The notes under the pieces are model-generated. The model had not been told where the DNA came from and did not search any database. It saw only the letters and a list, made by a program, of their open reading frames with translations. 15,138 nucleotides of DNA from UHGV virus genome UHGV-0077319, one strand, 5' to 3'. Origin of the DNA: a virus. Position numbers and translations under genes: made by a program. This document shows, piece by piece, positions 1-15,138 of this stretch. Within the stretch, counting starts at the first letter, position 1, and each line of letters begins with the position of its first letter.

Positions 1-1100
1 GGCCATGGAACAGGCACACCAACAGGTAATGCAGAGCCTTCTCCCAAACCAAGGTATGCGAGAAGACCAGCTACATCCTTTCCACTCAAATTAGTCAGCG
101 TATTGTCCAGCGGTTGTTTACCTGCCAGCGCATTAAGCATTGTCGTGGCAAAGTTCGGGTCATTCCCCAGCGCCGCAGCCAGTTCGTTCAGTGTATCCAG
201 TGCAGCAGGTGCAGACCCCACCATTGCCGCAATTGCCGATTTCACAAAAGCCGTGGTGGCAATCTGTGTATTGTTAACCGACTGTGCGGCAGTGGGGGCT
301 GTTGGCGTTCCGGTGAGTGCCGGACTTAACAGCGGCGCTTTCAGTGCCAGCGCATTGTTAATGGTGGTACTGAATTTCGGGTCATTATTAATGGCAGCGG
401 CAATTTCTTTCAGCGTATCCAGTGTGGCTGGCGCACCATTAATAAGGGCCATCAGTGCCGCCTGAACAAACGCGGTGGTCGCAATCTGCGTGGTGTTATT
501 CCCCTCCGCTGGCGTTGGCGCTTTGGGTGTTCCGGTCAATGTCGGGCTTTCTTTGGGGGCATACTGTGAATGCGGGTCCGGTGCGGCAAGATGTTTTGCC
601 ATCTTATCATCCACGAACACCTTCAGCTCCAGTACCTTATCATCCACATACTTGCGGGTTGCCAGCACGACGGCAGGGTCGATTTTCAGGGTGATATTGT
701 CCGTGCTGCTGGTAATCAGCACCATGCGCACGGTCTGGGTGCGCCCGCTGCCTTCAGCCAGTTGCGGCTTATAGCTTTCCGGGCAGTTGCCTACGGCAAT
801 CAATGCCCCGGACTCATCAAACAGACCCACTTCACGTATCCACCAACCACCCTCATTTTCAGGGATCACCTGTTCAGCAATAATCTGGCTGCTGTTCTGC
901 GGGTCGATATAGAGCATATTCAGCGCAGCCCGGCGTTTCTCATTTACCAGTGCCGTCTGCTTTGCGTCCGGCGTCGGCAATGCTCCGCCGCCATCGCCCA
1001 CCGCCATATGGGTAATTTTTAGCGGCACACCGAGCGCGGCGGCGCTGGCAAGTTTCGCCGCGCCAATATCCGTCAGCAGGGTATAAAATTTTGTGCTCAT
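1..1100 (-). CDS. H: tail fibre protein gpH, N-terminal part (3' end lies beyond the window start)
   Basis: Minus-strand ATG at 1100 (reverse complement of cat 1098..1100). My hand translation begins MSTKFYTLLTDIGAAKLA and resembles the P2 gpH N-terminus. No minus-strand stop down to position 1. Overlaps the gpI stop by 4 nt. Confidence 0.8.
   Translation of the reverse strand, partial: MSTKFYTLLTDIGAAKLASAAALGVPLKITHMAVGDGGGALPTPDAKQTALVNEKRRAALNMLYIDPQNSSQIIAEQVIPENEGGWWIREVGLFDESGALIAVGNCPESYKPQLAEGSGRTQTVRMVLITSSTDNITLKIDPAVVLATRKYVDDKVLELKVFVDDKMAKHLAAPDPHSQYAPKESPTLTGTPKAPTPAEGNNTTQIATTAFVQAALMALINGAPATLDTLKEIAAAINNDPKFSTTINNALALKAPLLSPALTGTPTAPTAAQSVNNTQIATTAFVKSAIAAMVGSAPAALDTLNELAAALGNDPNFATTMLNALAGKQPLDNTLTNLSGKDVAGLLAYLGLGEGSALPVGVPVPW
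117..495. repeat. two diverged tandem copies (~220 bp period) inside the tail fibre gene
   Basis: The segment starting near 120 (tgccagcgcatt...gtatccagtg...ggcaatctgtgt) recurs near 340 (tgccagcgcatt...gtatccagtg...cgcaatctgcgtggtgtt), with shared anchors visible by eye. The plus-strand shadow ORF 103..465 shows the same internal repetition. Confidence 0.7.
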
Positions 1101-1702
1101 GGATTCACTCTCATTGTGTCAATAACATGGACCGCCCCGCCTTCATGCGCGGTGCCGCCGGAAATAATTGTTTCGTTGATATACGGATAGATCGTGATTT
1201 CTTCGCCAAGATAACTGGCGGCTCCCACCCAATGCGGACCGCTGGTCTGCAGATTGATGGACATGCCGATCATGTGACGGCTACATGGTTTGGCATCGCT
1301 TATCAGTCGCTCAAGTTCCAGATAGGTATCTTCAGTGATGCCCTGGTCCTGCACACCAATGTCCAGACGAAACGTGCCCGGTGTTTCTCCGGTCTGCCAC
1401 CACTCAATAATGCGGATCAGGAAGCCGAACGGCTCCACCACCCGCCGTACGGCACTGGTGGTTCCTTTGTGCTGATGAATATAAAAAGCATCCTTCACTA
1501 CCTGGCGTTTGACGCTTTCTGTCCAGCCCTCGTCCCAGCGATCCACAGAGAACGCCCAGGCGAGATAAGGCAGGAAACTGACCGGACAGGTTGCCGGATT
1601 CCACAAGTCACGCAGTGACACCTGCAGATCAGAAATCCCGCTACAGGTTTGCGCCAGTCGGCGCTCCAGTGGCGTTGAACCCGGTGGCAGCAGACTATTC
1701 AT
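1097..1702 (-). CDS. I: baseplate assembly protein gpI
   Basis: 201 aa ORF. The motif RDLWNPATCPVSFLPYLAWAFSVDRWDEGW matches the conserved P2 gpI core (ELWNPDTCP...LAWAFSVDRWDE). Confidence 0.85.
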   Translation of the reverse strand: MNSLLPPGSTPLERRLAQTCSGISDLQVSLRDLWNPATCPVSFLPYLAWAFSVDRWDEGWTESVKRQVVKDAFYIHQHKGTTSAVRRVVEPFGFLIRIIEWWQTGETPGTFRLDIGVQDQGITEDTYLELERLISDAKPCSRHMIGMSINLQTSGPHWVGAASYLGEEITIYPYINETIISGGTAHEGGAVHVIDTMRVNP

Positions 1703-2603
1703 CCGTTCCCCCGTTGGTCACGCTCCACTGAGTACATGATGCCGCCTGCGTTTTGTTCAGGACCACATCAGCCAGCGGTGAAGCCAGCTCCACACGTTGA
1801 ACACCCTCAACATGCAGCGCGGCAAAAATAGCACTACGGCGAATATCCCGACCGAGCCGCGTCTGACTGGCGATGTACCTCTGCAGGCTGACTTTTGCTG
1901 CTGCCATTACCGGCTCTGCTTCCGGTCCCGGATAAAGAAAAATGGTAGCTTCCACACGGTACGGGATGATTTCTGCGCTGCGAACCGTCAGACGGTCAGC
2001 CACCGGGCGGACGTTCTCACTGTTCAGGGCTTTCTCCACCACATCCAGCAAGTCTTTTTCTGCTGTTCCGTCGCCTTCACGACTCAGGACAGTCAGTACC
2101 ACCTCTGCAGGTGCCGGACTGGTTGCACTGGCATCCGCCACCCGACCGTCGGCGCTTCGGGCATGAAATTCATAAGCTGCAGTTGGTCCCGCAACTGAAA
2201 GCCCTTCAAAGGCTGCAGGCACACGCAGGCGTAACGCTTCATCGCTTTCCATCACAGCTGCAACGGGCGGCACAGCGTCATTATCAGCAGGCGTCACCGT
2301 CAGGCGTTTCACGTTGTAGTTGGCAGCGAGCTGGTCAAGATCGCCGCCCATCGCGTAAGCCACCATCACCGCCTGCGCGGCTTCGTTAATGCGCTGGCGC
2401 AGAAGCAACTCACGGTAAGCATTCTCCTGCAACAATTTGGTGACGGGTTCAGATTCCAGTTCCAGCGTGCGGATCACTGCTTCCTGCTCATCTTTCGGAT
2501 GAAGCGCCACAAATTCTGCCTTGCGTTCGGCAAGCAGCGTCTCAAAGTCCGGCACATCCACAATCTGCGGTGCAGGCAACTGCGAAAGGTCAATCACTGC
2601 CAT
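1695..2603 (-). CDS. J: baseplate assembly protein gpJ
   Basis: The track ORF 1695..2642 starts at an upstream Met. The P2-like N-terminus MAVIDLSQLPAPQIVDVPDFETLLAERKA begins at the ATG at 2603 (cat 2601..2603). The C-terminus ends ...VTNGGTDE like P2 gpJ. Confidence 0.85.
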   Translation of the reverse strand: MAVIDLSQLPAPQIVDVPDFETLLAERKAEFVALHPKDEQEAVIRTLELESEPVTKLLQENAYRELLLRQRINEAAQAVMVAYAMGGDLDQLAANYNVKRLTVTPADNDAVPPVAAVMESDEALRLRVPAAFEGLSVAGPTAAYEFHARSADGRVADASATSPAPAEVVLTVLSREGDGTAEKDLLDVVEKALNSENVRPVADRLTVRSAEIIPYRVEATIFLYPGPEAEPVMAAAKVSLQRYIASQTRLGRDIRRSAIFAALHVEGVQRVELASPLADVVLNKTQAASCTQWSVTNGGTDE

Positions 2604-2949
2604 TCTCTGCTCCTGTTGATACGGAAAGGGACACAGGCACACCGTTATTCCGCCGCCCGGTCAGCTCCACCACCATAGAACCGTCAAAGTTGCTGTTGAT
2701 GGTGATGGAATCCAGCGTCAGCCGTGGCTCCCAGCGACTCAGCGCCACATACACTGCCGACATGACCTGCAGGCGTAATGCCGGATTTTGTGGCTGGTCT
2801 ATCAGTGCCGACAGCAGGGAACCATATTCACGACGGGCAATGCGGCTACCCTGCGGCGTCAGCAAAATGTCCCGCACCGACTGGCGCAGATGGTCAATAT
2901 CAGTAATGGCTTTACCGCTGGTATTGTTCATCCCGATATAAAGCGTCAT
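2590..2949 (-). CDS. W: baseplate wedge protein gpW
   Basis: 119 aa. GMNNTSGKAITDIDHLRQSVRDILLTPQGSRIARREYGSLL is similar to P2 gpW. Overlaps the gpJ start by 14 nt and gpV by 4 nt. Confidence 0.85.
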   Translation of the reverse strand: MTLYIGMNNTSGKAITDIDHLRQSVRDILLTPQGSRIARREYGSLLSALIDQPQNPALRLQVMSAVYVALSRWEPRLTLDSITINSNFDGSMVVELTGRRNNGVPVSLSVSTGAENGSD

Positions 2950-3524
2950 ACCGGGCCTCCGGTGGTGTCGCCGCCTTTCAGGACGCCAGTATGCTGATGC
3001 GCATCAACCACGATCCCGTTAGAACTCATTGCACCGCCGCCCTGGGTAACGCCACCATTGATCACCACCTCACTGTTAATACGCGTGCGGTCAGCCTCCA
3101 GTACAAACTCACTGGTTTTCAGGGTGATATTGTCAGTGGCCTCAATGACCATAGATTTGATGCCCCTGACATACCAGAGCCCGGTGGCGGGTTCGTATTC
3201 AAACCAGCCACCGTCAGGATGTTCTGTCACGCAGGCGTCCGCCGACGTCGACGGTGGAGCGAACTGATTCGAATAGACAGCGGGCAGCGCAAAGGCAGTT
3301 TCCAGATTACCGCCCAGACTCAGCAGCACCACCTGCTCACCTTCCGATGGTCGCCACCATGTCCGGGCATTTCCTGCACGCAGCGTCAGCCAACTGATCC
3401 AGTTAGTTTCAAGCTCGCCCGTTTTCACTCGGCAAAGCCAGTTTTCCCTGTCCACTTCGGTGACTACCCCAGTGCGGATCAGGTTGGTGATAAGGCGCAT
3501 GATTTCGGTAAGTTGTGCGTTCAT
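2946..3524 (-). CDS. V: baseplate spike/assembly protein gpV
   Basis: 192 aa. MNAQLTEIMRLITNLIRTGVVTEVDRENWLCRVKTG...TWWRPSEGEQ is similar to P2 gpV. This is the first gene of the V-W-J-I-H operon. Confidence 0.85.
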   Translation of the reverse strand: MNAQLTEIMRLITNLIRTGVVTEVDRENWLCRVKTGELETNWISWLTLRAGNARTWWRPSEGEQVVLLSLGGNLETAFALPAVYSNQFAPPSTSADACVTEHPDGGWFEYEPATGLWYVRGIKSMVIEATDNITLKTSEFVLEADRTRINSEVVINGGVTQGGGAMSSNGIVVDAHQHTGVLKGGDTTGGPV

Positions 3525-3611
3525 GGGGCTGATTCTTGCATGCTAAAAGAAATAAGATCTCCTGTTCAAAAATGTATGAACTCCTATACAATGTATTTCC
3601 CATGAAAATTT
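3525..3611. promoter_or_regulatory. divergent control region between gpV (minus) and the moron ORF (plus); contains a TGT-N12-ACA dyad
   Basis: TGTatgaactcctatACA at 3573..3590 fits the TGT-N12-ACA Ogr/Delta activator-site consensus of P2 late promoters. A sigma70-like pair TTCAAA (3565..3570) and TACAAT (3587..3592) with 16 nt spacing reads toward the plus strand. Confidence 0.35.
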
Positions 3612-4214
3612 ATGGAATTGCTAAAAGTGAACGAAGATAATCAACCTGAAAAAGAAACCAATATCTTGAATAAATGGTCACCCAGGGACTTACTTAATCC
3701 TTTTACTGAACTCTTTACAATATTCACATCAAAAAATGATAACGAAGTGGAAAACGCAGCTGAAAATTTTCAGATGCGAATTCAAAAACTAATATTCTTC
3801 ACATTAACTTTACTACTTCTTACGAAAGGTTTTTTTGAAATACTACAAACTCTAACTTTTTTAGAACAACCCCTTATTCTTCATTTCCCACTCTTAAATG
3901 AACCTTTAGTGTTTTATAAAGACCATGGCATTGCTGGTAGCCTTTTAAGAATAAAATCACTAGTATTTGTAGCCAATGCATTAGCTCTTTCATGCGGTTT
4001 TCAGCTGGCATACATGCTTGTAACAAAGGGACCAGATGAAGCCGTAGAACCAATTATGTTGGGTATCGCCTCTGCTATTCTTTTAATTCTTTCTGATAGT
4101 TCTCCTGCAGAATGGGGGCTGGAGAAATCCTTAGCTATATTCTTTTTAATAATAAGCATCCCAATTTTATATTGGTCATCAAGAAAAATGAAAAAAGATA
4201 AAGATAACGAATGA
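3612..4214 (+). CDS. hypothetical polytopic membrane protein (AT-rich moron at the S/V junction)
   Basis: 200 aa ORF on the strand opposite to the late genes, in markedly AT-rich DNA with AT-rich codon usage. At least four hydrophobic helices (LIFFTLTLLLLTKGFF, ALSCGFQLAYMLV, IMLGIASAILLILS, LAIFFLIISIPILYW). No clear SD; the true start could be a downstream Met (for example MRIQKL). Confidence 0.55.
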   Translation: MELLKVNEDNQPEKETNILNKWSPRDLLNPFTELFTIFTSKNDNEVENAAENFQMRIQKLIFFTLTLLLLTKGFFEILQTLTFLEQPLILHFPLLNEPLVFYKDHGIAGSLLRIKSLVFVANALALSCGFQLAYMLVTKGPDEAVEPIMLGIASAILLILSDSSPAEWGLEKSLAIFFLIISIPILYWSSRKMKKDKDNE

Positions 4215-4240
4215 CACATTATTTTTCTTTATAGGTATAT

Positions 4241-4687
4241 TTATCTAAATAGCCAGCACAGAATAGCGTCACGGGTAACTATTTCCACTTCATCACTAAC
4301 GCCTAGTAGTCTACGCTCTGCATAGCGGACCTCCGGTCCTCTTCGACTGACGCGATCACGCAGGCCGTAATGGTGAACACGGGCAATGCGCTGTACCTTG
4401 CCTTCAAACTGCACGCTGGCAGAGTCGGCGCTGGCGGCAGTTTTCAGGTATTTTGTGGTGCGCAGCTTTGTAAACATCTGACGTTTGATGCGCCCCTTTT
4501 TGCTGCGTGCTGTTACCCGTCGCGGCTCATAACTGCTGCCATCTGGATTGCGCTGCATCCTGATGTTCTGCTGCTGTGTCCGGCGCAGTTCCTGCGCCAG
4601 CTGGCGCATCATGCGGCTTCTGGTGGCTGGCTCCAGATTCGCCAGCAAGGCACTCAGCCAGTCGTCCACTTTCTGCAGTTCAGCCAC
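4241..4687 (-). CDS. S: tail completion / virion morphogenesis protein gpS
   Basis: 148 aa ORF in the S position, last gene of the O-to-S operon. Size and position match P2 gpS (about 150 aa). Confidence 0.75.
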   Translation of the reverse strand: MAELQKVDDWLSALLANLEPATRSRMMRQLAQELRRTQQQNIRMQRNPDGSSYEPRRVTARSKKGRIKRQMFTKLRTTKYLKTAASADSASVQFEGKVQRIARVHHYGLRDRVSRRGPEVRYAERRLLGVSDEVEIVTRDAILCWLFR

Positions 4688-5132
4688 GTTTCACCGTCCA
4701 CATTTCTTCAGGTTCATCAGGTTCCGCTATAGCTTCAACGCTCGACACACTGCCGTCAGTGCTGACCAGCACACGCTCCGTCAGTTGCAGGTTCAGGCTG
4801 ATATCACAGACATCGTTGCGCAGAATATCCACCTCAAAGGTGAATAGCTTTTCCCGTAACGCCGGGTTATTGATGGCATCGGGCTGGTTATCACGCAGCC
4901 ACAGCAAAACCGGGGCCATCAACAGATTCTGGTCACCACTGAAATCCTCTATCACCACGTTCAGGGTGTAGCGGTACTCCCATGACATGGAGCTGGCCCC
5001 CGTGGCAACCAGCGAACCGTTATCCACAAACAGATGCAGTTTGTCCGGGTTATTACGGACATAAGGCACTGCTTTATTAATGGCGTGGCGCAGGGATTGT
5101 GGTTTGTTCACTATTTCGCTCCTGACACGCAA
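4680..5132 (-). CDS. R: tail completion protein gpR
   Basis: 150 aa. NPDKLHLFVDNGSL...RYTLNVVIEDFSGDQNLLMAPVLLWLRDNQPD parallels P2 gpR (NPDMLRIFVDNGSI...RYTLNVIVTDFTGD...VPVLAWLRENQPD). Confidence 0.8.
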   Translation of the reverse strand: MRVRSEIVNKPQSLRHAINKAVPYVRNNPDKLHLFVDNGSLVATGASSMSWEYRYTLNVVIEDFSGDQNLLMAPVLLWLRDNQPDAINNPALREKLFTFEVDILRNDVCDISLNLQLTERVLVSTDGSVSSVEAIAEPDEPEEMWTVKRG

Positions 5133-10187: not shown

Positions 10188-11954
10188 ATGAACACCACAC
10201 TGACACCCGCAGATCTCGATCCCCGTCGGCAGGCCATGCTGCTGTACTTTCAGGGATACCGCGTAGCCCGCATTGCTGAAATGCTGGGCGAGAAAGTTGC
10301 AACCGTTCACAGCTGGAAAAAACGCGACAAGTGGGGTGACTATGGGCCGCTGGATCAGATGCAGCTCACCACCGCCGCACGCTACTGCCAGCTCATTATG
10401 AAGGAGCACAAAGAAGGGAAAGATTTCAAAGAGATTGACCTGCTGGCGCGCCAGTCGGAGCGCCATGCGCGGATCGGCAAGTTTAACAATGGCGGCAACG
10501 AAGCCGACTTAAACCCTAACGTCGCCAACCGCAACAAAGGCCCGCGCCGTCAGCCGGAAAAGAACGTTTTCACCGATGAACAGATTGAGAAGCTGGAAGA
10601 AATCTTCCATTCCTCCATGTTCAACTACCAGCGCCACTGGTGGGAAGCCGGAAAAACCAACCGCATCCGCAACCTGCTGAAGTCACGCCAGATCGGCGCG
10701 ACCTTCTATTTTGCCCGTGAAGCCCTGATTGACGCCCTGCTAACCGGGCGTAACCAGATTTTCCTTTCCGCCAGCAAGGCACAGGCCCACGTCTTTAAGC
10801 AGTACATCATCGACTTCGCCAAAGAAGTGGAGGTGGAGCTGAAAGGCGATCCGATAGTGCTTCCTAACGGGGCCACGCTGTACTTCCTCGGCACCAATGC
10901 CCGCACGGCCCAGAGTTACCACGGCAACCTGTATCTGGATGAATATTTCTGGATACCGAAATTCCAGGAGCTGCGCAAAGTGGCTTCCGGTATGGCTATT
11001 CACAAAAAATGGCGACAAACCTATTTTTCCACGCCATCCAGCCTGACACACAGTGCTTATCCGTTCTGGTCCGGTGCGCTGTTCAACCGTGGGCGCAACA
11101 AAGCCGACAAGGTGGACATCGACCTGTCCCACAGCAATCTGGCCCCCGGCCTGCTGTGCGCAGACGGGCAATACCGCCAGATAGTCACCGTGGAAGATGC
11201 GGTGCGCGGCGGCTGTAACCTGTTCGACCTCGACCAGCTACGCATGGAGTACAGCCCGGACGAATACCAGAACCTGCTGATGTGCGAGTTCGTGGACGAT
11301 CTCGCGTCCGTGTTCCCGCTTAGCGAACTGCAGACGTGCATGGTGGACAGTTGGGAAGTCTGGACCGACTTTCATGCACTGGCCCTGCGCCCGTTTGGCT
11401 GGCGCGAGGTGTGGATCGGTTATGACCCGGCAAAAGGTACGCAGAACGGCGACAGTGCCGGATGCGTGGTGGTGGCTCCGCCAGCCGTGCCGGGCGGTAA
11501 GTTCCGTATTCTTGAGCGTCACCAGTGGCGCGGGATGGACTTCCGCGCCCAGGCTGATGCAATCAAAAAACTGACCGAGCAGTACAACGTGACCTATATC
11601 GGCATTGACTCGACAGGCGTCGGTCACGGGGTTTATGAGAACGTGAAAGCGTTCTTTCCTGCCGTCCGGGAGTTTGTCTACAACCCCAACGTTAAAAACG
11701 CTCTGGTACTCAAGGCCTACGACATTATCAGTCACCGTCGTCTGGAGTTTGACGCCGGACACACCGACATTGCGCAGTCATTCATGGCAATCCGTCGCGC
11801 AACCACCGCCAGCGGCAACCGCCCGACCTATGAAGCCAGCCGCAGCGAAGAAGCCAGCCACGCCGATCTGGCCTGGGCAACAATGCACGCACTGTTTAAC
11901 GAACCGCTGCAGGGCGAATCCGCCAATACCAGCAATATTGTGGAGATTTTTTGA
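10188..11954 (+). CDS. P: terminase large (ATPase) subunit gpP
   Basis: 588 aa. N-terminus PRRQAMLLYFQGYRVARIAEMLGEKVATVHSWKKRD is similar to P2 gpP. Stop overlaps the Q start (ATGA). Confidence 0.9.
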   Translation: MNTTLTPADLDPRRQAMLLYFQGYRVARIAEMLGEKVATVHSWKKRDKWGDYGPLDQMQLTTAARYCQLIMKEHKEGKDFKEIDLLARQSERHARIGKFNNGGNEADLNPNVANRNKGPRRQPEKNVFTDEQIEKLEEIFHSSMFNYQRHWWEAGKTNRIRNLLKSRQIGATFYFAREALIDALLTGRNQIFLSASKAQAHVFKQYIIDFAKEVEVELKGDPIVLPNGATLYFLGTNARTAQSYHGNLYLDEYFWIPKFQELRKVASGMAIHKKWRQTYFSTPSSLTHSAYPFWSGALFNRGRNKADKVDIDLSHSNLAPGLLCADGQYRQIVTVEDAVRGGCNLFDLDQLRMEYSPDEYQNLLMCEFVDDLASVFPLSELQTCMVDSWEVWTDFHALALRPFGWREVWIGYDPAKGTQNGDSAGCVVVAPPAVPGGKFRILERHQWRGMDFRAQADAIKKLTEQYNVTYIGIDSTGVGHGVYENVKAFFPAVREFVYNPNVKNALVLKAYDIISHRRLEFDAGHTDIAQSFMAIRRATTASGNRPTYEASRSEEASHADLAWATMHALFNEPLQGESANTSNIVEIF

Positions 11955-12979
11955 TGGGAAAGAGTAAGAAGAACCGCGCTGCGGCGACGAAACAGCTCCA
12001 GCTTAAAAACCAGACTACAGCCGAAGCATTCAGCTTCGGCGATCCCGTTCCTGTTCTGGACCGCCGAGAACTGCTGGACTATGTGGAATGCGTACAGATG
12101 GACCGTTGGTATGAGCCGCCCGTCAGCTTTGACGGACTGGCGCGCACCTTCCGCGCTGCCGTGCATCACAGTTCCCCGATTGCAGTAAAGTGCAACATTC
12201 TGACCAGTACCTATATCCCTCATCCGCTGCTCAGCCAGCAGGCTTTTTCGCGTTTTGTGCAGGACTATCTGGTATTTGGTAACGCCTACCTGGAGAAACG
12301 CACAAACCGATTCGGTGAAGTTATCGCTCTTGAGCCTGCGCTGGCAAAATACACCCGACGCGGATTAGACCTGGATACCTACTGGTTTGTGCAATACGGT
12401 ATGACAACCCAGCCGTATCAGTTCACGAAAGGCAGCATTTTTCATCTGATGGAACCGGACATCAACCAGGAGATCTACGGCCTGCCCGGCTATCTTTCTG
12501 CCATTCCGTCAGCCCTACTCAACGAGTCCGCCACGCTGTTCCGTCGCAAGTATTACATTAACGGCAGCCATGCGGGCTTTATCATGTACATGACCGATGC
12601 CGCGCAAAACCAGGAGGATGTGAACAACCTCCGCAACGCGATGAAAAGCGCCAAAGGTCCAGGCAACTTCCGCAACCTGTTTATGTACTCGCCTAACGGC
12701 AAAAAGGACGGGCTTCAGATCATCCCATTGTCAGAAGTCGCGGCGAAGGATGAATTTCTTAATATCAAGAACGTGAGTCGGGATGACATGATGGCAGCGC
12801 ACCGCGTGCCGCCTCAGATGATGGGGATTATGCCTAATAATGTTGGGGGGTTTGGGGATGTGGAGAAAGCAAGTAAAGTGTTTGTACGAAACGAACTTAT
12901 ACCATTACAAAAACGCTTAGGAGAGATAAATGAATGGCTTGATAAAAAAATAATAGAATTTGAAATATATTCACTCTGA
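11951..12979 (+). CDS. Q: portal (capsid vertex) protein gpQ
   Basis: 342 aa in the position downstream of and overlapping P, as in the P2 P-Q operon. The last ~30 codons fall in AT-rich sequence, which suggests the island junction lies at the gene's 3' end. Confidence 0.85.
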   Translation: MMGKSKKNRAAATKQLQLKNQTTAEAFSFGDPVPVLDRRELLDYVECVQMDRWYEPPVSFDGLARTFRAAVHHSSPIAVKCNILTSTYIPHPLLSQQAFSRFVQDYLVFGNAYLEKRTNRFGEVIALEPALAKYTRRGLDLDTYWFVQYGMTTQPYQFTKGSIFHLMEPDINQEIYGLPGYLSAIPSALLNESATLFRRKYYINGSHAGFIMYMTDAAQNQEDVNNLRNAMKSAKGPGNFRNLFMYSPNGKKDGLQIIPLSEVAAKDEFLNIKNVSRDDMMAAHRVPPQMMGIMPNNVGGFGDVEKASKVFVRNELIPLQKRLGEINEWLDKKIIEFEIYSL

Positions 12980-13026
12980 TACATTTACATCACTTAATAG
13001 GACATCCATCGCTCAACACATAATAA

Positions 13027-13056
13027 GAAAAAAAACTACGGCACTACCGTGCCGTA
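13027..13056 (-). terminator. rho-independent terminator for the minus-strand cargo operon (possibly weakly bidirectional)
   Basis: Perfect 7 bp stem acggcac (13038..13044) / gtgccgt (13049..13055) with a 4 nt loop. On the minus strand the hairpin is followed by a U8 tract (A-run 13028..13035 on the plus strand). Lies directly after the last cargo gene. Confidence 0.6.
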
Positions 13057-13064
13057 ACAAATTA

Positions 13065-13559
13065 TCACTTTAAGAATTTTTTCTGATAAGACTCATCAAT
13101 TAGAGATTTAATTATTTTCGCCCTTTTTGACACTAATACACTAATTCTTGTCCTTTGACTTTTATCATACTCCTGTGCTTTTTCAATATTAGATGTAGCA
13201 TCTTTGAATAAATCAGCAATCAAAGGTTTATAGTCACCTTCGATATTAATGCGTTGTTTTAGATGATTCAACCACCGCTCGGTCTCCGCAAGAAGTGCTG
13301 TTATCTCATTTTGAAATGACATTGCATCAATTTCTTTTGAATCTCCCGGTATCCAAAACTTTCTTGATGCAGATTCAATTTCCTTTAAATTATCTGAAAC
13401 ATTTTTTACAATTGACCATGTTTCACTCCTCTTTTGCAACGCACGGGAGTTTCTATATACAAAAACCCAACCAATCAAGGCTGTTAGAATTGCAATCACA
13501 CCTGAACTAGCAAGGTATTGTAATAACCGCAGATAAACCGGAAGTTCATCCATGAACAT
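13065..13559 (-). CDS. cargo gene C: single-pass membrane protein with coiled-coil-like soluble domain (hypothetical; candidate effector)
   Basis: AT-rich ORF. Candidate starts are GTG 13562, ATG 13559 (overlapping the gene B stop as TGATG) and ATG 13553 (GGAG 8 nt upstream). N-terminal hydrophobic helix LLQYLASSGVIAILTALIGWVFVY, then a charged helical region. The terminator follows. Confidence 0.6.
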   Translation of the reverse strand: MFMDELPVYLRLLQYLASSGVIAILTALIGWVFVYRNSRALQKRSETWSIVKNVSDNLKEIESASRKFWIPGDSKEIDAMSFQNEITALLAETERWLNHLKQRINIEGDYKPLIADLFKDATSNIEKAQEYDKSQRTRISVLVSKRAKIIKSLIDESYQKKFLK

Positions 13560-13879
13560 CACTCCTTTTTAGCATCAGAAATATATCCCCATATACTATC
13601 CTTGAGGAAATCCAAATCAGTAAATATTTTTAATTTTTTCCTAATTATAGCTTTATCTATATTATTTGTTCTATAAAGTCCACCAAACGCCTCTTCCAAG
13701 AATGAAGAACCATAACCCATAGCACCATCAAGGTACACGTGCACCTCATCATAATCTTGGATGGCTTTCAAAAGATACTTTTCACGGAAACGTTGTCCAT
13801 TATCAGGACCATCCTCATCATAGCGGCCATAGGGAACATCTGAAAAATCTTCAGCAACATGTATCTCTTTGATTTTCAT
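13559..13879 (-). CDS. cargo gene B: small acidic protein, STAS-like (anti-sigma-antagonist-like) by motif; hypothetical
   Basis: 106 aa. ATG at 13879 overlaps the gene A stop (ATGA). VHVYLDGAMGYGSSFLEEAFGGL resembles the strand-Ser-helix core of STAS/SpoIIAA-like domains. The assignment is from motif memory only. Confidence 0.55.
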   Translation of the reverse strand: MKIKEIHVAEDFSDVPYGRYDEDGPDNGQRFREKYLLKAIQDYDEVHVYLDGAMGYGSSFLEEAFGGLYRTNNIDKAIIRKKLKIFTDLDFLKDSIWGYISDAKKE

Positions 13880-14943
13880 TCAGCACCTCTCAAACTTACA
13901 TTCCATTGAATAAGGGTTCCACCTATGGAGTATGGCAGATCAAATTTATCTTCAACATTATTTTCAGCATCATAAGAATATCGTCCCATTCCACTAAAAA
14001 TATGTAACTGCCCCTCAGGGTTATCTACAACATACCTTTTCATATCAGGTAATCCTTTACCATGCTTCTGACTATTCATTCTTGTCTCACCATACTGTAC
14101 AGCCGCGAATATTTTATCAGAATCCGTCTTAGGATTAAATATCTGAGCGATAAATGTGAAAAAGTCTTTTTTAACCAATGTAACTGGGATACCTTCTCCC
14201 ATATCATACACCATCAAAAATAGTTGTTCTTCGACTTTGTGTGCCAATATCCACCATCTTTTACCAATGTCCTCAATAAATTCAGAGAACTGTTCTTCAT
14301 TTGAATACGCATGTAGACCAACATTGCTAATAGATTCAGTTAATGCTGCATATAATTTCACACCATCCGAAGCGGAAATCTTACCTTCATAAATGGTATC
14401 TTTTATATAACGTAGAATATTTTTAATTTTTTGTCTTGCTTCGGCACTTTCATGATCATCTCTAGTTTTGCCTGCAACAGCGGAAACAATTTCCATTGAA
14501 TTAAGCTTATCTGCAGCTATACGCTGAAACCCTGTAATCCCCCAAATACCACATATTTTAAACCAGTTATTTGCCCTGGGTGAACCGCACGTAGTAATAG
14601 AAATTATATTTTTATCTTTTGTTTGCCTTTGTAAAAAGTCAATATGTGCATACAATACGATTACTGCACATGCTTTCAGAGATTTTGTATTTCTGAAATC
14701 TATTAAAATTTTCTCACCATCATTGATGTAATCTCTGATTAAAGTGATAAACTCTATAAATAGTTTGTAATTTTTAGTATTAAATAAGTCCAATGACGCA
14801 GGCGCGGGTATTCTCACACGAGAGAATACCCGCATGGGCTGTAGCATCCGTCTTCCACCAGAAAGCTTTCTTGACTCCCGCTTCGCAATCTTCCTTGCTC
14901 TGATCAAAGAATGTTCAATTTGTTCTTCAGTTAGCCGCTTCAT
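13876..14943 (-). CDS. cargo gene A: protein with an N-terminal domain of unknown function and a C-terminal GHKL (histidine-kinase-like) ATPase domain
   Basis: The track ORF starts at 14988, but the ATG at 14943 (MKRLTEEQ) has GAGG 7 nt upstream. Bergerat-fold motifs appear in the canonical order: N-box ESISNVGLHA, G1 box YDMGEGIP (DxGxG), G2 box HGKGLPD (GxGL). The N-terminal ~200 residues are unrecognised. Confidence 0.65.
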   Translation of the reverse strand: MKRLTEEQIEHSLIRARKIAKRESRKLSGGRRMLQPMRVFSRVRIPAPASLDLFNTKNYKLFIEFITLIRDYINDGEKILIDFRNTKSLKACAVIVLYAHIDFLQRQTKDKNIISITTCGSPRANNWFKICGIWGITGFQRIAADKLNSMEIVSAVAGKTRDDHESAEARQKIKNILRYIKDTIYEGKISASDGVKLYAALTESISNVGLHAYSNEEQFSEFIEDIGKRWWILAHKVEEQLFLMVYDMGEGIPVTLVKKDFFTFIAQIFNPKTDSDKIFAAVQYGETRMNSQKHGKGLPDMKRYVVDNPEGQLHIFSGMGRYSYDAENNVEDKFDLPYSIGGTLIQWNVSLRGAE

Positions 14944-15138
14944 ATCCTTTCCTCGATAGTTGTTGAAGCTTATCAGTTCACGCAACAACTACAAACATCT
15001 ACCTGCTATCTTAAAGCAACAATTTGAAAGAACATTGAAAATCATAGTATCTGTTTGTAAACAAACGACTGTTTCTATACCTTGCGCGCGCTCGTATCCC
15101 CGCCACGCCTGCCCGCTTTATGTAGTGGTTTTCATGCA

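Follow-up and report, generated by a model that had tools for sequence, protein, structure and literature searches.

Kinase-STAS switches and membrane proteins in phage defence

Among described systems, the closest to the locus studied here is VapKSC, reported by the Corbett laboratory (EMBO J 2026), which comprises a STAS-GHKL kinase (VapK), a STAS antitoxin (VapS) and a PIN toxin (VapC) (PMC13373217). In this system, VapS holds VapC until the kinase phosphorylates VapS; Ser48 of VapS is buried in the VapC interface, an S48E mutant releases the toxin, and the vapKSC operon provides ~100-fold protection against phage Bas42 (PMC13373217). Its authors describe VapKSC as toxin-antitoxin-like and responsive to a general DNA-damage signal, and their survey, limited to vapC-containing operons, makes no mention of a membrane version (PMC13373217). 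In CapK/CapS, a STAS-GHKL kinase phosphorylates a STAS repressor, and the two proteins regulate CBASS, Bub and other immune operons; the aromatic residue in contact with single-stranded DNA is W68 in CapK and F54 in VapK (PMC13373217). In VapK, this residue is located between the STAS and GHKL domains and mediates activation of the kinase by single-stranded DNA (PMC13373217). Our literature searches on DUF4325 in phage, and on partner-switching or STAS plus HATPase in phage defence, returned nothing relevant, and the search combining GHKL and anti-phage led to the VapKSC report (PMC13373217).

A second set of comparators comes from prophage cargo. The gpA-gpQ cargo hotspot of P2, defined by Rousset et al. 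2022, and its P4 counterpart contain systems with small transmembrane (TM) proteins, such as RT-nitrilase + 1TM, 2TM + 1TM + TIR and hydrolase + TM, in which the TM proteins are presumed abortive-infection effectors (PMC9122126). The P2 hotspot also holds non-defence cargo, for instance partition systems and toxins (PMC9122126).

A three-gene cargo operon next to cos

The window, that is, the whole stretch of 15,138 nucleotides analysed here (UHGV-0077319), belongs to a P2/186-like prophage of Escherichia coli and is 100% identical to strain D3. The terminase gene (10188-11954) is followed by the portal gene gpQ (11954-12979, plus strand), annotated by PGAP in the identical E. coli D3 locus, which forms one boundary of the gpA-gpQ hotspot (PMC9122126). 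On the other side of the cargo block lies cos-proximal sequence (15081-15138) common to Fels-2 and other P2-like phages: these last 57 bases show 96-100% identity to the cos-proximal region of Fels-2 and of many Klebsiella, Salmonella and Yersinia P2-like phages, and the cargo operon therefore abuts cos. GC content is 34-37% from approximately 13000 to 15000, against 53-60% elsewhere in the element. The operon contains three genes only, here termed A, B and C, with gpQ, cos, DinI and gpA as neighbours, and is closed by an intrinsic terminator (13035-13058, minus strand), consisting of a 10-pair hairpin followed by a T-run, that faces the end of the portal gene.

Elsewhere in the window, a 200-aa orphan ORF (3612-4214, plus strand) occupies an islet of 33% GC between the baseplate spike gene gpV (2946-3524, minus) and the tail-completion gene gpS (4241-4687, minus). 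This ORF, on the strand opposite to its neighbours, returned no match in Pfam or PADLOC, and its location looks like a second cargo spot of the prophage.

The operon corresponds to P2-hotspot system #61 'DUF4325' of the Rousset et al. catalogue, listed with 68 occurrences and the remark '1 TM in protein 3' (Table S5B, PMC9122126). Proteins 1 and 2 of this system match A and B at or near identity, protein 1 being identical to A, and the two PGAP proteins of E. coli D3, WP_042005405 (A) and WP_119743262 (C), co-occur in the published locus table (PMC9122126). A P4-hotspot version is present in the same catalogue as system #69 'HATPase_c | DUF4325' (9 occurrences, Table S1B, PMC9122126), and its protein 3 is a clear member of the C family. 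Both systems are catalogue entries without a name or mechanism, and are absent from the lists of validated and additionally tested systems (PMC9122126). The representative given for protein 3 of system #61 is a 214-aa single-TM protein (MEPNYNYHYMM…; Table S5B, PMC9122126) with marginal similarity to C (BLASTP E 0.16; hhalign probability of 41% against the family); either it is a second, very divergent variant of the third gene that accompanies the same A, or the catalogue representatives were drawn from mixed loci. We also considered and rejected an identity between the operon and the validated P2-hotspot system Rst_3HP ('hp + hp + hp'): the 3HP proteins are unrelated in length and sequence and have no TM segment (Table S2A, PMC9122126), and PADLOC reported no match.

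A and B are VapK- and VapS-type proteins

The 355-aa product of gene A (13876-14943, minus strand) combines a STAS-like domain at the N-terminus with a GHKL kinase domain of the RsbW/SpoIIAB type, and the stop codon of gene A overlaps the start of gene B (ATGA). The N, G1, G2 and G3 boxes of the GHKL domain are invariant across 21 diverse A proteins (E203, N207, D247xGxG251, G295xG297 and G342-T343), the N-box reading 'tESisNVglHAY' (E203/N207), with the STAS-like segment upstream of these motifs. Pfam HATPase_c and HATPase_c_2 match A weakly, below threshold, and its best PDB sequence match is the serine kinase RsbW, through the N-box (E 0.06). Profile-profile alignment with VapK (hhalign) was far stronger, with a probability of 96.2% and an E-value of 2.3e-9 over 254 columns, covering both the STAS and the GHKL domains.

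The product of gene B (13559-13879, minus strand) is a 106-aa STAS-like protein of the Pfam DUF4325 family (E 3.5e-12), to which VapS also belongs (E 2.7e-17), and is a putative phospho-switch and antitoxin. At the STAS phospho-serine position, B carries the invariant loop G57-S58-S59-F60-L61-x-E63, with S58 and S59 invariant among 12 diverse B proteins. Searched against the PDB, the B profile returned four weak matches, of which Escherichia VapS (9z7o; E 0.32) is the only STAS-type protein; this alignment spans the whole STAS domain and places S58 on the VapS serine loop. The direct hhalign comparison of B and VapS was weak (probability 11%), a scan of viral contigs seeded on VapS found no close relatives, and PADLOC v2 holds no model for A, B or C. 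The profile match between A and VapK, together with the common DUF4325 family of B and VapS, thus identifies A and B as VapK- and VapS-type proteins.

Several features separate the pair from its described relatives. B lacks the C-terminal inhibitory extension, a helix, of VapS. Aromatic residues in the STAS region of VapK face serine or valine in A, at approximately residues 75-105 in the hhalign alignment, although the published VapK sequence used for this comparison was taken from the paper, like that of VapS, and was OCR-derived, so that residue numbering is uncertain. Since A shows no obvious conserved counterpart of the aromatic that contacts single-stranded DNA, its activating signal may differ from single-stranded DNA. 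As in CapK/CapS, a STAS-GHKL kinase is paired with a STAS protein bearing a phospho-acceptor serine; in contrast, CapK has an additional HTH, CapS is a transcriptional repressor with a wHTH whereas B has no DNA-binding domain, and the Cap pair has no third, toxin gene. The combination of a GHKL serine kinase and a STAS substrate, with an RsbW-like N-box in A, likewise recalls the SpoIIAB-SpoIIAA-sigmaF and RsbW-RsbV-sigmaB modules, but the present locus encodes neither a sigma factor nor a PP2C phosphatase, A carries a STAS-like domain of its own, and the proposed output here is a membrane protein.

Gene C is a conserved gene starting at 13553

Gene C (13065-13553, minus strand) is the last of three tightly packed minus-strand genes and encodes 162 aa, as defined by its ORF and translation, the PGAP CDS WP_119743262 at the same coordinates in E. 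coli D3, dN/dS analysis and homologues. Its stop codon (TAA) is at 13065-13067, and its start lies 5 nt past the end of gene B. The earlier note on this sequence had regarded the start as ambiguous among three candidates and had drawn the gene as 13065-13559. A Shine-Dalgarno sequence, AAGGAG (13562-13567, minus strand), read from the sequence within the last codons of gene B, is spaced 8 nt from the ATG at 13553 but only 2 nt from the ATG at 13559, and overlaps the GTG at 13562; moreover, position 13553 is the start in the PGAP call and in all homologues. Spacing and homologous starts therefore settle on the third candidate, the ATG at 13553, and move the upper bound of the gene from 13559 to that position.

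Comparison with the Enterobacter copy yielded pN = 0.10 and pS = 0.73, for a dN/dS of ~0.04. The length of C is kept in 53 close clusters, 46 columns are invariant among 17 aligned representatives, and the family profile, run against 1.84 billion representatives, recovered 107 clusters (50% identity) at E ≤ 1e-3 with near full-length alignment. Judged by these sequence comparisons, C is a real gene under strong purifying selection. A plus-strand ORF at 13295-13510 overlaps C in antisense and was discarded as a gene, with nothing in its favor.

C is predicted to anchor a cytoplasmic four-helix bundle in the inner membrane

A single stretch of C, residues ~10-33, is strongly hydrophobic, its 19-residue Kyte-Doolittle score peaking at 2.19 (family median 2.08). 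Kyte-Doolittle analysis, the AF2 model and the positive-inside rule concur in assigning it as a TM helix (13455-13526, minus strand; LLQYLASSGVIAILTALIGWVFVY). Lysine and arginine residues follow the TM segment in 146 of 146 members of the family, averaging 3.6 after the segment versus 0.45 before it, which places the short N-terminus in the periplasm and the helical domain in the cytoplasm (N-out/C-in).

In the AF2 model computed from the family alignment (pLDDT 89, pTM 0.73), C folds as a TM helix plus a compact bundle of four helices of 20-30 residues each. One helix spans residues 19-67, and breaks between helices coincide with W67/P69, which are invariant, and with a G/P loop. The cytoplasmic bundle (residues 34-160; 13074-13454, minus strand) is net basic, with 25 lysine and arginine residues against 19 aspartate and glutamate residues, and has no enzymatic motif. 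Its nearest folds include the four-helix-bundle signalling domains of LytS-N, TorS, QseE and MCP, but these similarities are generic, at 4-14% identity, and the top scores belong to designed bundles.

No family in Pfam, NCBIfam or PADLOC matched C (for PADLOC, none at E ≤ 1), and a PDB sequence search returned only noise. Among the known membrane effectors and holins in PADLOC and the PHROG lysis families, the sole match was the phrog_20 holin (E 0.006), in the TM region. Pfam detected no PIN domain, and no conserved periplasmic or ligand-binding domain was found in C. The possibility that C is an HPt phosphotransfer bundle was rejected, as none of its invariant residues (G28, W29, N35, R42, E44, W67, R101 and E124) is a histidine. 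An assignment to DUF2489 was also rejected: none of 17 scanned family members shows DUF2489 in Pfam, even at E ≤ 10. The C homolog of Ignatzschineria cameli (P0046), one of these 17, is labelled 'DUF2489 domain-containing protein' in UniRef, a label that the Pfam scan does not reproduce.

These analyses bear out the earlier description of C as a protein with a single N-terminal TM anchor, for which the TM and topology prediction proposed at the time has now been run, and with no recognizable enzymatic motif. That description had also portrayed the remainder of the protein as a long charged helical coiled coil; the domain is helical and rich in charged residues, but no long uninterrupted heptad-repeat helix was encountered, and the AF2 model shows a compact bundle in place of a coiled coil.

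The hallmark of the C family (13416-13472, minus strand), defined by the alignments and motif listing, is the sequence G28 W29 … N35 … R42 S E44 T W46, which lies on the cytoplasmic face of the membrane, where it takes in the inner end of the TM helix and positions in the first helix of the bundle. It can be written as GW-x5-N-x6-R-x-E…W, or more fully as GW-x3-[YF]-x-N-[AS]-x2-[LI]-x2-R-x-E…W. Nearly invariant positions across the family are G28, W29, N35, R42, E44 and W67, to which a 35-sequence alignment adds R101 and E124 as invariant residues and T120 as a nearly invariant one. The membrane span is free to vary and the short periplasmic tail differs in length between members; with the motif located next to the membrane, this indicates that the selected surface of C is the cytoplasmic one. 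Such a pattern of conservation at the juxtamembrane surface would suit the docking of a soluble partner more than it would suit an extracellular sensor.

C is a fixed component of a widespread A-B-C triad

C directly follows A and B in every one of the approximately 95 loci read from Enterobacterales, marine gammaproteobacteria, viral contigs and metagenomes, and it was never found alone. In a scan of 5426 complete E. coli genomes, all 20 genomes with A and B also had C. The A-B-C order is maintained in Ignatzschineria, Gibbsiella, Enterobacter and Serratia, in a P2-like prophage for all except the Ignatzschineria copy; in Photobacterium, Rheinheimera and Cognaticolwellia, where IS, NERD, integrase or Fic genes adjoin the triad; in Budvicia and an Oceanospirillaceae MAG; and in two metagenome contigs with A 26-32% identical to the window copy. 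Across distant triad loci, A is only 19-32% identical to that copy. The full alignment of 106 C sequences proved too diverse as a seed for genome scans, and the subfamily alignment used in its place found only two genome loci.

The viral-contig scan, seeded on B, produced 230 confirmed matches, of which 80 loci were kept. A protein matching the C-family HMM lies directly downstream of B in 67 of these; in 12 others the third gene encodes a divergent protein of 146-188 aa with an N-terminal hydrophobic segment, weak in some cases (Kyte-Doolittle 1.1-1.4), and a '…YW..P' motif; the remaining locus runs off the end of its contig. A is found upstream of B wherever sequence exists, the exception being four loci (L051, L052, L054 and L056) where only a fragment of A is present. 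No enzymatic third gene was seen in any of the loci read. Given that all loci carry a third gene of one and the same type, C is best described as a fixed, co-diverging core component, and we rejected the idea of a swappable effector added at the end of the operon.

The four loci with a fragmentary A (~200-4750 of each contig) carry two tandem triads on one contig. The first triad is complete and divergent (A, 208-1164; B, 1161-1514; third gene, 1511-1945, 144 aa). Of the other, B and C (3953-4752) have been kept, with the fragment of A. At another locus (L020, 2895-3957), frameshifts seem to have broken A into three ORFs, while B and C are intact and the contig is otherwise identical. In a high-GC metagenome contig (L008, 1-9029), gene calling missed B and C, and the triad became visible only by ORF listing. 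It is flanked by a 976-aa protein on one side and a 2137-aa DEAD/Helicase_C/MZB protein on the other, the interval also holding a small RHH-type/toxin-like gene pair, and this neighborhood resembles a defence island.

Proposed role of C and alternative explanations

The comparison with VapKSC suggests a role for C. The order of kinase, STAS protein and third gene is the same in VapKSC, in the window and in every related locus read; the homology of A to VapK extends over both domains; membership of DUF4325 and a conserved serine loop are common to B and VapS; and both systems reside on mobile, defence-associated DNA. The third protein, in contrast, is here a single-pass membrane four-helix bundle instead of a PIN RNase, B is devoid of the C-terminal inhibitory helix of VapS, and the VapK aromatic in contact with single-stranded DNA is not evidently conserved in A, with the uncertainty in numbering given above. 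With respect to the TM effectors of the hotspots, C resembles them as a small TM protein ending a short P2/P4 cargo operon, but it has no sequence relationship with them (no PADLOC match), its partner genes are wholly different and it possesses a large conserved cytoplasmic domain.

By analogy with these systems, C is probably a membrane-acting effector. More specifically, we propose, with a probability of roughly one half, that C is the output component, in the toxin slot, of a three-gene phospho-switch related to VapKSC and acting at the inner membrane. The earlier note had put C forward as the effector of the cargo operon, and this idea is supported in part: its position in the toxin slot of a VapKSC-like architecture, beside a VapK-type A and a VapS-type B, and the P2 and P4 hotspot context speak for it, whereas C matches no known effector, is not a swappable add-on and is most conserved at its cytoplasmic juxtamembrane surface, not in the membrane span. 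The support is indirect and does not come from features of C itself.

We infer the following course of events. In an uninfected cell, B would bind the cytoplasmic four-helix bundle of membrane-anchored C and keep C inactive. A phage- or damage-derived signal would lead A to phosphorylate the invariant serine loop of B (S58/S59), and phosphorylated B would release C. Free C would then self-associate or rearrange at the membrane and compromise the inner membrane, being toxic to the cell, and growth would stop before the phage cycle is completed; the prophage would thus carry the A-B-C module as anti-phage cargo in a defence hotspot. The conserved juxtamembrane cytoplasmic surface of C and its predicted N-out/C-in topology fit a regulated membrane component of this kind. 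On the other hand, one TM helix joined to a compact four-helix bundle that looks soluble, as modelled, is no obvious pore former, which counts against the proposal. So do the lack of similarity of C to known membrane effectors beyond the weak phrog_20 match, the low similarity of B to VapS in comparisons other than Pfam, the absence from B of the VapS C-terminal extension, the lack of an evident counterpart in A of the aromatic that contacts single-stranded DNA, and the weak predicted hydrophobic segments (Kyte-Doolittle 1.1-1.4) of some divergent third-gene products.

A role for C as a membrane tether or sensor, which would localize A and B at the inner membrane or report perturbation of the membrane or of DNA entry, while A would phosphorylate other proteins of the host or phage as the real output, seems unlikely to us. 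The conserved part of C is indeed a cytoplasmic, docking-type surface, its periplasmic tail being short and variable, and A is the only enzyme of the operon; in the only characterized relatives, however, the kinase itself is the sensor, the STAS protein its substrate and the third gene the toxin (PMC13373217). The presence of the LytS-N, TorS, QseE and MCP signalling bundles among the nearest folds of C would suit a sensor, but these matches are generic (4-14% identity), with designed bundles highest. Similarly, the CapK/VapK aromatic for single-stranded DNA is not evidently conserved in A, leaving room for another input. Against a sensor, C carries no conserved periplasmic or ligand-binding domain.

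It is likewise doubtful that the triad is mainly a stress-responsive toxin-antitoxin, a prophage-maintenance or an inner-membrane superinfection-exclusion module, with a main role other than abortive-infection defence. Among the small inner-membrane proteins of prophages, blocking of DNA entry is common, which favors such a role, but a kinase and a phospho-switch would be needlessly elaborate for constitutive exclusion. VapKSC itself has been called toxin-antitoxin-like and responds to a general DNA-damage signal, although it also protects against a phage (PMC13373217). And while the hotspot carries partition systems and toxins as well (PMC9122126), the triad is found in the P2 hotspot, in the P4 hotspot and, beside defence-type genes, in other mobile islands.

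We consider rather improbable a reversed flow of information, in which C would be an inner-membrane receptor for phage genome entry or membrane perturbation that sets the state of B and A via its juxtamembrane surface, with protein phosphorylation as the output; if true, this logic would constitute a membrane-sensing partner-switch, of a kind not described for any anti-phage system. Finally, the view of C as a structural protein built on a long coiled coil, which its richness in charged residues and all-helical prediction might suggest, is very improbable given the AF2 model (pLDDT 89, pTM 0.73), in which four helices of 20-30 residues are separated by breaks at W67/P69 and at the G/P loop.

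Implications for kinase-STAS operons

Kinase-STAS switches have so far been described with the CapS transcription factor or the VapC PIN toxin as their output. If C is the output component of a VapKSC-related phospho-switch, as we favor, these switches would also be wired to a membrane protein, and this membrane version is widespread, comprising at least 107 clusters (50% identity) and 230 viral-contig matches and occurring in both the P2 and P4 hotspots. The proposal, if true, would supply a name and a testable mechanism for an unannotated protein family and for a catalogued E. coli hotspot system. It would also mean that the third slot of kinase-STAS operons is a modular effector slot, and would offer a simple genetic system for studying the hold of a soluble STAS protein over a membrane effector.
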